Positions 16,925 through 20,085 of a stretch of DNA of 64,000 nucleotides are shown in pieces. The position numbers were made by a program, and so were the translations under genes. Positions within the stretch are counted from its first letter, which is position 1. The number at the start of each line of letters is the position of its first letter. This DNA is from Candidatus Micrarchaeota archaeon (lineage in GTDB: Archaea > Micrarchaeota > Micrarchaeia > Norongarragalinales > Norongarragalinaceae): NCBI GenBank assembly GCA_016207165.1, contig JACQQD010000003.1, forward strand, positions 47,343 through 111,342. Direction: 5' to 3'. The notes beneath the pieces were generated by a model. It had not been told where the DNA came from, searched no databases, and saw only the letters and a program-made list of their open reading frames with translations.

Positions 16925-16995
16925 ACGCTTTTTAAGCGGTGTTTTCATGCGTTGTAGGCTTCTGTTCCTTTCAAACTGAAAGGTGATTGTACAAC

Positions 16996-17490
16996 ATGTC
17001 CAAACTGACGATTCCCGCCATGGTGGAAGGCGGCAAAGCCTCCGCCGGCCCGCCCCTGGGTCCCGCACTGGGCCCCACCGGACTGAACATCGGGCAGATC
17101 ATCGCGCAAATCAACGAGAAAACGAAGGCCTTCGCCGGCATGCACGTGCCCGTGAAAGTCGTCGCCGACCCCAAGACCAAGACGTTTGAAATCGAAGTCG
17201 GCACGCCACCCACGTCCGCGTTGCTCAAAAAAGAAGCCGGCATCAAGGAGCCCGTCAAGGAGACGGAAGGCGAGAAAGGCAAGAAAACCATCGGCAACTT
17301 GTCCTTGGACCAAGTCATCAAAGTCGCTCAATCCAAGAAAGACCAGTCCCTGGCCAAGACCCTGAAAAGCCGGGTCAAGGAAGCCGCCGGAACGTGCCTG
17401 TCGTTGGGCATTACCGTGGAAGGCAAAAACCCCAAAGAATTCATTGCCGACGTCTCCGCCGGAAAACACGACGCCAAGCTCAAGGACTAG
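16996..17490 (+). CDS. rpl11: 50S ribosomal protein L11
   Basis: GGKASAGPPLGPALGP, PPTSALLKKE, GTCLSLG; AGGTGA SD. Confidence 0.97.
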   Translation: MSKLTIPAMVEGGKASAGPPLGPALGPTGLNIGQIIAQINEKTKAFAGMHVPVKVVADPKTKTFEIEVGTPPTSALLKKEAGIKEPVKETEGEKGKKTIGNLSLDQVIKVAQSKKDQSLAKTLKSRVKEAAGTCLSLGITVEGKNPKEFIADVSAGKHDAKLKD

Positions 17491-17496
17491 TGTTCC

Positions 17497-17515
17497 GGCT
17501 CCCGGTGTTTTTTCT
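17497..17515 (+). terminator. Small hairpin plus T tract after rpl11
   Basis: CCGG-CTC-CCGG followed by TGTTTTTT. Confidence 0.45.
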
Positions 17516-17636
17516 CCAAATCCGGGCGCGGCCACGCCAACGCGGAGGTTGGAGCCTGGCTCGCGTTGTAAACCGCGACCATTGTTTCCTGCGTGTGGTC
17601 CAAGTGGTGGGCGCGGCGAAAGCCGTCGTAGACTTC

Positions 17637-17939
17637 CTAGTGGATGAAGTCCCGCAGCAAGTCCACGGCCTTTCGGATGGATTGGCCGATCTGTTTTTCG
17701 CTCTTGGCGCCGGAACAAATGACTTTGCCGTTCTTGAACAACAACAGCGTGGTTCCGATGTCTTTCAGGCGCATGATGGCGCCGGGGAACTGCTCCGGCT
17801 CGTATTCGACGTTGTCGACTTCCATGGCGATGTTGAACAAATCCAGTTCCACCTTCAAATTGGCGGAGGCGACGATGTTTTCCACCTTGAACGACATGTC
17901 GACATTCCTAGGCAAGCGCTTCTTTGCTTTCTTCACCAT
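17637..17939 (-). CDS. tbp: Single-repeat (half-size) TATA-box-binding protein
   Basis: VENIVAS, EYEPEQFPG, LLFKNGKVICSGAKS each present once; 100 aa; GGTGAT SD. Confidence 0.88.
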   Translation of the reverse strand: MVKKAKKRLPRNVDMSFKVENIVASANLKVELDLFNIAMEVDNVEYEPEQFPGAIMRLKDIGTTLLLFKNGKVICSGAKSEKQIGQSIRKAVDLLRDFIH

Positions 17940-18074
17940 AGAGCCATCACCGTTTTAAATATGCTTTAAAAAACTTGGGGTCCCGCCTTATAAAGCCTCG
18001 GTTTGGGGTTGGAAAGGGAGGTTTATAAAAGGGGAACGGAACACATAGGATATTCTAAATTTCCAGGTGTAACC

Positions 18075-18353
18075 ATGAAGCGATCCAAAGGGGCGCATTC
18101 CAAGCGCTCCCGAAACCTCCGCGCCAAGGGCCGCGTGGCCATCACGCAGTTTTTGCAGGAATTCAAGGCCGGCGACCGCGTGCGCATCGACGTGAACACC
18201 AACGTGCTTCGCGGACGGCCCACGACCCTGCGGTTTAACCGCAAAACGGGTCTGGTGCTCGGAAAGCAAGGCAAAGCCTACTGCGTGCGCATTCAAGATG
18301 GCGGCAAACCCAAAGAGATGTTCATCCTGAACGCCCACCTCGTCAAGGTGTAA
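18075..18353 (+). CDS. rpl21e: 50S ribosomal protein L21e
   Basis: MKRSKG, FKAGDRVRI, G.P..RF..KTG.V, DGGKPK, HL. Confidence 0.93.
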   Translation: MKRSKGAHSKRSRNLRAKGRVAITQFLQEFKAGDRVRIDVNTNVLRGRPTTLRFNRKTGLVLGKQGKAYCVRIQDGGKPKEMFILNAHLVKV

Positions 18354-18355
18354 AA

Positions 18356-18685
18356 ATGGAATTGATTCAAACCAAGCCCGTATCCATTCCCGAGTCGCTT
18401 GACTTGCTTTTGAAGCGCCAGAAAGACGGAGAACTGGGGTACGAACAGCAAAACACGTTGACGCATCTGGAAGCCGTGGCCAAGATGGACGGAAAAGACG
18501 CTAAGGCCATGGAAAAAGAGCTCAAGGCCGCCGTGGCGTCGATTTCAGACGCTCAGCTGGCCGCGCTCGTCTCGATTGTGCCCAAGAACGCCGATGACGT
18601 GCGCCAGGTGCTGGCCCAAGAGAAAAGCGAGGCCACCGAAGACGACGTCAAGAACATCCTGGCTATCCTGAAAGCCAAAAAATGA
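18356..18685 (+). CDS. rpoF: RNA polymerase subunit Rpo4/RpoF
   Basis: ELGYEQ motif; conserved position after rpl21e. Confidence 0.85.
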   Translation: MELIQTKPVSIPESLDLLLKRQKDGELGYEQQNTLTHLEAVAKMDGKDAKAMEKELKAAVASISDAQLAALVSIVPKNADDVRQVLAQEKSEATEDDVKNILAILKAKK

Positions 18686-18743
18686 GGGGGGGCTTTAAAT
18701 TGCCCTTTCGCCTAAACTGATTTTGCGAGGCGTATGGATTGCC

Positions 18744-19322
18744 ATGTTCAAAAGGGAGGAGAACGCGTTCGTCCTGGATTTCTTGCCCCAGGGAAAGTCC
18801 GGGGAAGCCAAGCGCGAGCCCGTGGTCCAGCTTTTGGGCGACGCACAGTTCACGTTGCTTGAAGCCACGCCCAAACCCGGCGAAGCCTTGGCGTTGGGCG
18901 AAGAAGTCTACATCGGGCGCGGCGACCGCAACAAAGTCACGCACATCCGCGGCCGCATCCAGTACAATCAGTTGACCAACGCGGCACAACGGGAACTGGA
19001 AGTTCAAGTGGGGCAAATCGTTTTGCGCCGCGAAGCCGAATTCGTGCATTTTCTCAACCGCGCGGGCTCGATTTCCATCCGCGTGCACGCGTTGGAGCTT
19101 CTGCCTTCCATCGGCAAAAAACACTTGCAAGCCCTGCTCTCGGAACGCGAGAAAAAACCGTTTGAAAACTTCGCCGACGTCAACGCACGCGTGCACAACC
19201 TGGGCCGGGTCGACGAAATCTTCACGCAACGCATTTTAAGCGAACTGCGGGGCGACGAAAAGTACTACTTATTCGTCAAGATGCCCAGCCGCGACGACGA
19301 ACCCCGAAGACGGCGCTTCTAA
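18744..19322 (+). CDS. DUF655 predicted RNA-binding protein
   Basis: VLDFLP, FTLLE, HALELLPSIGKK, KYYLFV; conserved operon position. Confidence 0.88.
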   Translation: MFKREENAFVLDFLPQGKSGEAKREPVVQLLGDAQFTLLEATPKPGEALALGEEVYIGRGDRNKVTHIRGRIQYNQLTNAAQRELEVQVGQIVLRREAEFVHFLNRAGSISIRVHALELLPSIGKKHLQALLSEREKKPFENFADVNARVHNLGRVDEIFTQRILSELRGDEKYYLFVKMPSRDDEPRRRRF

Positions 19323-19326
19323 AGCC

Positions 19327-20085
19327 ATGAGACGCCCTCCGCTTGCCCAACACTTTTTGTGGGATTCCCAAGTCACCCGCCGGGCGGCCAACGTCGTTTC
19401 CCTGAAAGGCCTCCGCGTGCTGGAAGTCGGCGCCGGCACCGGCGCGCTGACCGTTGAACTGGCCCGCCAGAAACCCGAGAAACTCGTCGCCGTGGAAACG
19501 GACGCCGAACTCATTGTGAAACTCAATGCGCGCGTGCGGGACTGGCCCAACGTCAGCGTCGTACACCACGACGTACGCCAAATGGATTTCTCGGGTTTTG
19601 ACCTGGTTGCCGGCAACATCCCCTTCTACCTGTCATCGGAACTCATTTTCAAGACGTTGGAAAGCGGGGCCGACGCCCTTTTTTTCCTTCAAAAAGAGTT
19701 TGCAGACCGTTTGGTGGCCCAACCCGGTTCATCGTCGTGGGGCCGGTTGAGCGTCAACGCGCAGAACCACGCCGACGTGCGCATCGCCTTGGACGTGCCG
19801 CGGTTTGCCTTCAGCCCGCCTCCCGCCGTAGACGCTTGCGTCGTGGTATTGAAACGCAAAGCCCCGGAGGCCATCGACGAAAAACTCGTCGAGGCGTTGT
19901 TCTCGCACAAGAACCAGAAAATCCAGAACGCGTTTGAGCACTCCGCGCGAAAACTCGGCCTGAAAAAAGACGAAGCCAAAACCATTTCCAGGGAAATGCC
20001 CTTCTCGCAGGAGCGCGTGCGCCGCCTCACGCTGTCCAACTGGCTGACGCTCTCGGATTTCCTGAAAAAGAAAAAAAAGGCGTAA
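19327..20085 (+). CDS. ksgA: 16S rRNA adenine dimethyltransferase
   Basis: QHFL, LEVGAGTG, GNIPF, QKEFADRL, FSPPP.VD. Confidence 0.92.
   Translation: MRRPPLAQHFLWDSQVTRRAANVVSLKGLRVLEVGAGTGALTVELARQKPEKLVAVETDAELIVKLNARVRDWPNVSVVHHDVRQMDFSGFDLVAGNIPFYLSSELIFKTLESGADALFFLQKEFADRLVAQPGSSSWGRLSVNAQNHADVRIALDVPRFAFSPPPAVDACVVVLKRKAPEAIDEKLVEALFSHKNQKIQNAFEHSARKLGLKKDEAKTISREMPFSQERVRRLTLSNWLTLSDFLKKKKKA

Follow-up and report, generated by a model that had tools for sequence, protein, structure and literature searches.

Introduction

In archaea and eukaryotes the TATA-binding protein (TBP) canonically consists of two direct repeats, about 180 amino acids (aa) in all, which form a pseudo-symmetric saddle. 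That it arose from a homodimeric ancestor with one repeat has long been a hypothesis, and we know of no natural one-repeat protein that serves as the sole TBP of a cell. Here we describe a gene for a TBP of a single repeat, located at positions 17637 to 17939 on the reverse strand of a 64,000-nucleotide stretch of archaeal DNA (the window; contig JACQQD010000003.1). Its relatives at 72 to 92% identity come from Candidatus Micrarchaeota or Micrarchaeia metagenome-assembled genomes, several of them labelled Candidatus Norongarragalinales, and by the titles of these relatives the organism is probably a micrarchaeote (DPANN) of the order Norongarragalinales. We consider it likely that this gene encodes the only TBP of its genome and that the one-repeat protein acts as a homodimer.

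Canonical archaeal TBPs of known structure (PDB 2z8u from M. jannaschii, 1mp9 from S. acidocaldarius, 1pcz and 1ais from P. woesei) belong to the same repeat family as this protein, with E values of 1e-34 to 1e-37. The predicted fold of the protein overlays one lobe of such chains with a root-mean-square deviation (rmsd) of 0.9 to 1.6 Å over 75 to 79 columns. The two also have in common the YEPEQFPG stirrup motif, the phenylalanine positions, the partners transcription factor B (TFB) and TFE-alpha, and the locus, which in sister families is occupied by two-repeat TBPs. The present protein differs in having one repeat in 100 aa, where the canonical protein has two fused in about 180 aa, and in its Lys/Arg-rich N-terminal arm. 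With one repeat per protein, the saddle would have to arise by true homodimerisation, so that its halves, like its two stirrups, would be identical.

Stand-alone TBP-like domains have been described in archaea before. Brindefalk et al. (2013; PMC3597702) report monopartite TBP-domain proteins from Halobacteria (TbpA) and Thermococcales, beside a full TBP of the same genome. The Thermococcales proteins, of about 82 to 136 aa, are archaeal single domains that stand alone as ours does, but they are described there as distant from TBP, as forming a cluster of their own and as always occurring with a full TBP, whereas the present protein is a close homologue and the sole copy. Halobacterium TbpA, as described in the same paper, is a single domain that clusters with true TBP domains; it is, however, reported to be non-essential and found beside several full TBPs, in contrast to the present gene, which is sole, order-wide and situated at the main TBP locus. 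The protein studied here thus shows neither the high divergence and accompanying full TBP of the Thermococcales type nor the standing of a dispensable paralogue beside full TBPs, as in TbpA, since it has no paralogue and no full TBP beside it. Further afield, the TBP-like domains of RNase HIII and DNA glycosylases belong to the same helix-grip fold family (mouse OGG1 was a weak fold match, E about 0.1), but these domains are fused to enzymes, carry no sequence-level TBP signature and are not general transcription factors.

Other accounts touch the subject more briefly. Ravarani et al. (2020; PMC7221094) mention single-lobe versions in one sentence of their methods, and two supplements of that paper contain no DPANN terms. 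Surveys of DPANN archaea (PMC8407392, PMC8204110) and a paper on the Nanoarchaeum RNA polymerase (PMC8204694) simply state that TBP is present. A 2025 study of Micrarchaeota (PMC12892359) proposes that Norongarragalinales may be less host-dependent, and the words "TBP" and "TATA" are absent from its text. Single-repeat TBP-domain proteins were found in the literature only beside full TBPs, and in the literature covered, which leaves out subscription journals, no account was found of a lineage whose only TBP has one repeat.

Results

The gene reads from ATG to a TAG stop and encodes 100 aa, made up of a basic arm (residues 1 to 16, with 6 Lys/Arg among the first 13) and one complete TBP repeat (residues 16 to 98). 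The Pfam TBP profile (PF00352) matches residues 16 to 98 over its full length, positions 1 to 85 of 85, at 98.2 bits (E 2.5e-28), against a curated cut-off of 22.9 bits. By this measure the protein contains a TBP repeat, and only one; it lacks the tandem of two repeats that a polypeptide of about 180 aa would hold. Among 85 relatives, the net charge of the N-terminal tail has a median of +6 and is at least +3 in 75. A putative Shine-Dalgarno-like GGTGAT (17946 to 17951, reverse strand) lies 6 nt 5' of the ATG. The space 5' of the ATG measures 135 nt, up to the divergent L21e start at 18075, and that 3' of the stop 146 nt, up to the convergent L11 end at 17490; neither flank contains a second TBP repeat in any frame.

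An earlier description of the window, made from its letters alone (the sequence-only reading), had reported one repeat in 100 aa with a GGTGAT Shine-Dalgarno-like sequence, a basic N-terminal arm and a clean stop, all of which are confirmed by our reading of the open frame and by Pfam. It had further stated that no second repeat is readable downstream in any frame and that there is no room for one upstream, and the flanking frames together with a whole-genome search agree. That reading had left three roles for the protein: a homodimer resembling the pre-duplication ancestor, one member of a pair with another half-TBP, or an accessory regulator. It had also asked about other TBP genes in the genome, length conservation in relatives and read support, and it would have given way before a collapsed assembly, or before a full TBP at this locus in relatives combined with relaxed selection on this copy.

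A search of the genome (1.27 Mb in 12 contigs, 90% complete) for a full or second half TBP recovered only the gene at 17637 to 17939. With the Pfam TBP profile this gene was the single match at E ≤ 10. A hidden Markov model (HMM) built from 85 single-repeat relatives and run with hmmsearch --max over the 26,403 six-frame open frames of at least 25 aa likewise gave one match (E 1.8e-53), with a runner-up at E 5.1. Thus neither a second half-TBP nor a full TBP is found in the 1.27-Mb genome by Pfam at E ≤ 10 or by the HMM over these frames. As a control, the same search reports both adjacent cyclin repeats of TFB. That factor is encoded by one ordinary gene, a 304-aa frame on contig C5 with two cyclin repeats; TFE-alpha is present and ordinary, and the gene for the polymerase subunit RpoF adjoins the TBP locus.

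The single-repeat architecture extends over the order. Among the 68 genomes searched, 61 have a TBP match, and 60 of these 61 have exactly one single repeat, in open frames of 93 to 182 aa across the order. The other, G166, has two single repeats on separate contigs and 4% contamination. Two adjacent TBP repeats were found in 0 of the 68 genomes. The seven genomes without a match are 62 to 94% complete; three of them were examined, and two (G007, G090) also lack DUF655 while in the third (G173) a contig starts just before DUF655. With the neighbouring gene missing or the locus cut by the contig start, the TBP locus of these three was simply not assembled. Loci fetched from relatives gave the same picture: 85 of 92 (L001 to L092) hold a single repeat, with 91 to 146 aa from ATG to stop and a median of 102 aa. 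The genome to which the 1.30-Mb contig JBAZVF010000001.1 belongs also has one single repeat.

We then compared the class, in which 148 of 151 genomes at least 80% complete have a match; the states that follow were read among the matches listed (83 were not listed). One of the genomes counted, G108, is flagged as unpublished, and nothing else reported here depends on it. Among these, two adjacent repeats occur in one frame of 188 to 223 aa in families f12, f17, f20, f21, f22 and f24 (36 genomes), and in a 307-aa frame in one genome of f15 (G074). Most remaining families have, among the matches listed, single repeats only, in frames of roughly 92 to 145 aa. Family f14 has two matches per genome in all 22 genomes, and in the five examined these are two separate single-repeat genes, 150 to 760 kb apart when on one contig; the split halves are seen in two single-contig genomes as well, and the second halves score 79 to 94 bits. 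The genome CP058998.1 (titled a complete genome, Candidatus Fermentimicrarchaeum limneticum; L089, G181) carries three single-repeat genes that are unlinked, their frames measuring 106, 114 and 118 aa, and contains no two-repeat TBP gene.

In f14 (L097 to L106) and f18 (L134 to L137) two diverged, unlinked single-repeat genes form two starred clades. Type A (...ENIVASADL...) lies near DUF655 in some genomes, and type B (...IQNIVVSADLH...IILFKNGK...) is located elsewhere; the two types could together form a natural heterodimeric TBP. Database matches of 272 to 702 aa include single polypeptides with three repeats (P0001, P0242) and with four (P0241, P0246); P0241 resembles a doubled two-repeat TBP, and P0267 has two full repeats and a fragment. 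At L087 (3968 to 4480) a two-repeat Iainarchaeum TBP is broken in its second repeat by an ambiguous base and a frame change, and this locus was scored as single because of that interruption.

These families bear on the possibility that the window's protein pairs with a second lobe that was missed, either because it has diverged too far or because it lies in the 10% of the genome that is unassembled. The completeness of 90% over 12 contigs, the f14 genomes with two diverged unlinked halves (5 of 5 examined) and the three unlinked halves of CP058998.1 all speak for such a heterodimer. On the other hand, real second halves are easily found, at 79 to 94 bits, whereas here the runner-up stands at E 5.1 and Pfam gives no other match at E ≤ 10. 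Moreover, one repeat was found in 60 of 61 matching genomes of the order, and it is implausible that assembly gaps removed a gene from each of these. A missed partner lobe is very improbable. Pairing with another half-TBP, which the sequence-only reading had allowed for, finds no support in this genome, where no second half is detectable; in other Micrarchaeota families, with two or three unlinked half genes, half-TBPs may pair.

A single repeat could also be produced by an artefact, namely a tandem repeat that collapsed in assembly, a pseudogene (frameshifted or truncated), or a chimeric contig. Four DNA contig runs of one study (X1 to X4) include this stretch, and the window may derive from one of these runs. 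In their favour, artefact explanations have a contig depth that is several-fold higher at 17732 to 17859, a break of the X1 Logan contigs at 17810/17811 and a loose end at 17811. However, an X2 contig spans 17574 to 18800 and an X3 contig spans 16951 to 17943, each with 0 differences, no indels and no joints, and together they bridge the TBP open reading frame into both flanking genes. The depth bump consists of pieces of 28 to 67 bases over the YEPEQFPG coding core, several of them far deeper than this genome, and these short deep pieces are probably TBP genes of other archaea in the same metagenomes and not a collapsed repeat. The loose end probably comes from another organism, as its X4 record has a depth of 28.9, against 3 to 7 for this genome. 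The same architecture in 60 genomes of the order, from many assemblies, and a median dN/dS of 0.13 argue against an artefact as well. Taken together, the contigs carry the gene unchanged, the collapsed assembly that would have undone the sequence-only reading is not what they show, and an artefact is scarcely credible.

Gene order connects the single-repeat gene with the two-repeat genes of the class. The block L21e-RpoF-DUF655-KsgA (18075 to 20085, forward strand) is a conserved marker of the TBP locus across the class. The single-repeat gene of the order adjoins L21e-RpoF-DUF655(-KsgA), the two-repeat genes of f12, f17, f20, f21, f22 and f24 adjoin L21e-RpoF-DUF655 too, and f16 and f18 each have one copy at this locus with extra single-repeat paralogues elsewhere. 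Since one- and two-repeat families have the same neighbours here, the window gene is the positional orthologue of the main TBP. Among 73 close relatives, 2628 pairs were compared, of which 1947 were removed for dS ≥ 2 and 12 for dS ≤ 0.1. In the 669 pairs kept, the median dN/dS is 0.128, the 95th percentile lies at 0.228 and no value exceeds the maximum of 0.274. The TBP gene is under purifying selection, not relaxed. In distant relatives a full TBP does occupy this locus, one part of what would have counted against the sequence-only reading, but the relaxed selection that was to go with it is absent.

Seventeen positions are invariant in 33 diverse single-repeat proteins: N21, V23, D33, L34, Y46, E47, P48, Q50, F51, P52, G53, A54, F68, K69, G71, I74 and C75. 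In alignments to PDB chains, the C lobes of the P. woesei, M. jannaschii and S. acidocaldarius TBPs have exactly this YEPEQFPG loop, and F51, F68 and the stretch Y46 to A54 align with the same motifs of solved TBPs. An AlphaFold2 (AF2) model of the monomer (pLDDT 86.6, low confidence in the N-terminal arm) has the element order S1-H1-S2-S3-S4-S5-H2, which we take to be that of a canonical TBP repeat, so that in fold too the predicted monomer qualifies as one. Against the PDB it gave 44 matches at E ≤ 1e-3, all of them TBPs, and in the best rows it overlays one lobe with an rmsd of 0.9 to 1.3 Å over 75 to 79 columns. The TM-scores are 0.72 to 0.75 on the query and about 0.40 on the target, and the monomer therefore covers half of a TBP.

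A natural relative indicates how two such lobes might combine. P0015, a 187-aa protein on a 1119-nt contig, is a head-to-tail tandem of a 92-aa unit in which 83 of 95 positions are identical when the sequence is shifted by 92; both the basic arm and the C-terminal end are part of the unit. Its AF2 model, computed with an alignment (A2) of 40 two-repeat proteins, has a pLDDT of 94.8 and a pTM of 0.85, with TM-scores of 0.81 to 0.91 to whole solved TBPs. The model shows near-identical lobes of this type as predicted to fill both halves of the saddle, P0015 being a fusion, not a free dimer, and the prediction leaning on likeness to solved structures.

Promoters were surveyed genome-wide from our own rough gene calls (1248 genes, of which 743 have 50 nt or more of space upstream). 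The peak of TATA-like hexamers lies at -35 to -26 relative to the start codons, and the motif aAAa-SS-tTTTwAAa, obtained by expectation maximisation, occurs in an estimated 72% of the 743 upstream regions. It can be read as a BRE-like (B recognition element) A-run followed by a TATA-like element. The commonest hexamer at the peak, TTTAAA, is a palindrome, and several reverse-complement pairs of hexamers are near equal in number (24 vs 22, 28 vs 23, 21 vs 18). The asymmetry of the motif lies mainly in its BRE-like part, which fits, but does not prove, a symmetric TBP oriented by TFB and BRE. According to a previous study (PMC7289017), the orientation of the archaeal initiation complex depends on TFB-BRE. 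The TBP gene itself has a candidate TATA box, TTTATAA, at 17988 to 17994 (reverse strand), 49 to 55 nt 5' of the ATG, which resembles the genome-wide motif.

Two side observations concern leaders. The position of the TATA-like peak suggests that many mRNAs are leaderless or have very short leaders. The TBP and L21e genes differ, with TATA-like boxes about 50 nt upstream and Shine-Dalgarno-like sequences.

Discussion

Based on these results, a general role as the TBP of the cell is compatible with what the genome encodes, namely a sole TBP-like gene, TFB, TFE-alpha, an adjacent RpoF gene and an upstream BRE/TATA-like motif. In the mechanism that we propose, two copies of the protein would associate around a true two-fold axis to give a saddle like that of the fused two-repeat TBP, each subunit supplying a stirrup loop and two phenylalanines that intercalate into DNA. 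Binding of the dimer to the A/T-rich TATA element would be symmetric, the single canonical TFB could dock on either stirrup, and TFB would fix the direction of transcription through the A-rich BRE that it reads to one side of the TATA element. Dimerisation, binding and bending of DNA, and recruitment of TFB are here inferred properties of the protein. The basic N-terminal arm may possibly provide an extra DNA contact, and its counterpart appears as the linker in fused forms.

Alternatively, the protein might not be the general TBP at all but an accessory or regulatory DNA-binding protein, with initiation being TBP-independent or carried out by TFB alone. Precedent exists in other archaea, where single TBP-domain proteins have an unknown or non-essential function (PMC3597702). 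Those proteins, however, coexist with a full TBP, and none was found here or in the order; an accessory role is unlikely because no other TBP is available for the general job. In addition, the protein scores 98 bits on the Pfam TBP profile, whereas the Thermococcales proteins are described as distant from TBP, its gene occupies the two-repeat TBP locus of sister families, and TFB, TFE-alpha and BRE/TATA-like promoters are all in place. We therefore regard this alternative, the third of the roles raised by the sequence-only reading, as very improbable. The homodimer is the role that we favour among the three, on account of the sole copy, the positional orthology, the selection, the invariant motifs and the ordinary TFB, TFE and promoters; the likeness to a pre-duplication ancestor holds for the architecture.

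Several points weigh against the homodimer as the sole TBP. The 90% completeness leaves room for a second gene in the unassembled part of this genome. The mechanism also leans on a mapping in which F51 and F68 presumably are the two DNA-intercalating phenylalanines of the repeat and the acidic YEPEQ loop presumably is the stirrup contacted by TFB/TFIIB on the C lobe. At the promoters, other reverse-complement pairs of hexamers at the peak are unequal (27 vs 13, 24 vs 12, 19 vs 11), and the TATA motif approaches a palindrome only in rough outline, with more information in its 5' half. Given this rough palindrome and these uneven pairs, the promoters bear no specific sign of a symmetric reader.

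A separate question is whether the one-repeat state is ancestral or reduced. In the case of secondary reduction, the DPANN ancestor had a two-repeat TBP and lost one repeat, and the likeness of N and C repeats within the class is due to gene conversion, not re-duplication; we give this account about an even chance. It is favoured by the two repeats found in 142 of 149 top representatives scanned (other archaea and eukaryotes) and by a tree of neighbouring genes (76 loci, 384 columns, quick search). In this tree the two-repeat loci form one clade of 17 and an Iainarchaeum-like group, and just 3 changes of state are needed, one of them being the broken two-repeat gene L087; few transitions therefore suffice.

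Against reduction, the half shows no affinity to either lobe of canonical TBPs. Its scores against N and C lobes are 63.9 and 66.2 bits (M. jannaschii), 62.0 and 60.5 bits (S. acidocaldarius) and 54.1 and 65.9 bits (P. woesei). Of its ten NCBIfam TBP matches, five lie in the first half of the models and five in the second, and its identities with haloarchaeal lobes (0.33 to 0.44) show no preference for N or C. An assignment of the half to the N or the C lobe was accordingly dropped. In a lobe tree with 42 broad representatives added, a supported branch separates all the single, N and C lobes of this group from 81 canonical N and C lobes; the group side has 52 rows, including 11 lobes of the broad representatives. 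A grouping that keeps every N lobe separate from every C lobe is rejected (delta log-likelihood 119, p-AU 5.4e-5); it was chosen after the tree had been seen. Finally, P0015 repeats a whole 92-aa unit with its arm and looks like a duplicated single-repeat gene that was fused.

Repeat identities within proteins are high in this group. Between the N and C repeats of its 144 two-repeat proteins the median identity is 0.63 (range 0.45 to 0.90), compared with 0.40 to 0.44 in four haloarchaeal TBPs and with 0.40 (n=62, at most 205 aa) and 0.35 (n=66, longer) in the broad representatives. In a lobe tree that includes four haloarchaeal plasmid TBPs, N and C lobes are sisters in several proteins, among which P0005, P0086 and L088 have starred support, and the N lobes of f22 and f24 fall into one common clade, their C lobes into another. 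The haloarchaeal N and C lobes are joined to each other on a long branch in this tree, a placement that came with a warning of long-branch attraction, and with the 42 representatives the canonical N and C lobes are only partly sorted. Most N/C sister pairs can be read equally well as gene conversion inside a bipartite clade. Many independent re-duplications were considered as a firm claim and rejected, the neighbour-gene tree needing only 3 changes. What can be said is that transitions between one-repeat and two-repeat TBPs have happened within this group, and that P0015, by its sequence, appears to have been duplicated and fused recently. Like the arms of the single forms, the linkers in two-repeat TBPs of the class are rich in Lys/Arg. 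A further protein, P0002 (195 aa, on a 1238-nt contig), has its N lobe inside the single-repeat clade of the Norongarragalinales and its C lobe with the Iainarchaeum C lobes; either the assembly is chimeric here or two unlike lobes have been fused.

A further proposal is that Micrarchaeota, with some Iainarchaeota, keep or have regained the pre-duplication TBP, a homodimeric one-repeat protein that would be the sole TBP of cells which may be free-living. Tandem duplication and fusion would then have produced two-repeat TBPs anew within the class, the basic arm of the second copy turning into the linker as in P0015. In its boldest form, the one-repeat state would predate the bipartite TBP of other archaea and eukaryotes. 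We put this proposal forward as a doubtful one.

Whichever way the state arose, a one-repeat sole TBP across an order and much of a class provides natural proteins for the questions of how a symmetric dimer binds and bends TATA DNA. Such proteins also bear on how TFB and BRE alone set the direction of transcription and on what the asymmetry of modern TBP adds. Furthermore, the clade holds single, paired unlinked, fused, three-repeat and four-repeat forms, which makes the step of duplication and fusion open to study.

The family may easily be overlooked. Public databases hold 948 clusters of 55 to 175 aa at E ≤ 1e-10, and NCBI often names family members of 95 to 110 aa "hypothetical protein" (P0137, P0140, P0145, P0153 and others). 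The present protein scores 59 to 88 bits on the NCBIfam TBP models, whose cut-offs are 181 to 347, and every model misses it; scores so far below the cut-offs fit with this naming. Because the NCBI TBP models miss these proteins, surveys may score TBP as absent in DPANN genomes.

The remaining features of the locus concern the neighbours. The gene for ribosomal protein L11 (16987 to 17490, forward strand; Pfam Ribosomal_L11_N and Ribosomal_L11) is convergent with the TBP gene. A 257-aa open frame at 16945 to 17718 (reverse strand) overlaps L11 and the 3' end of the TBP gene in opposite or shifted frame; it is read as a spurious frame, of a kind common at 56% G+C, and it is absent from codon-model gene calls. 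The divergent cluster consists, by Pfam matches, of L21e (18075 to 18353), RpoF/Rpo4 (18356 to 18685), DUF655 (18723 to 19322) and KsgA/RrnaAD (19327 to 20085), all on the forward strand. Its candidate TATA box would be TTTATAAAA at 18022 to 18030 (forward strand), 45 to 53 nt 5' of the L21e ATG.

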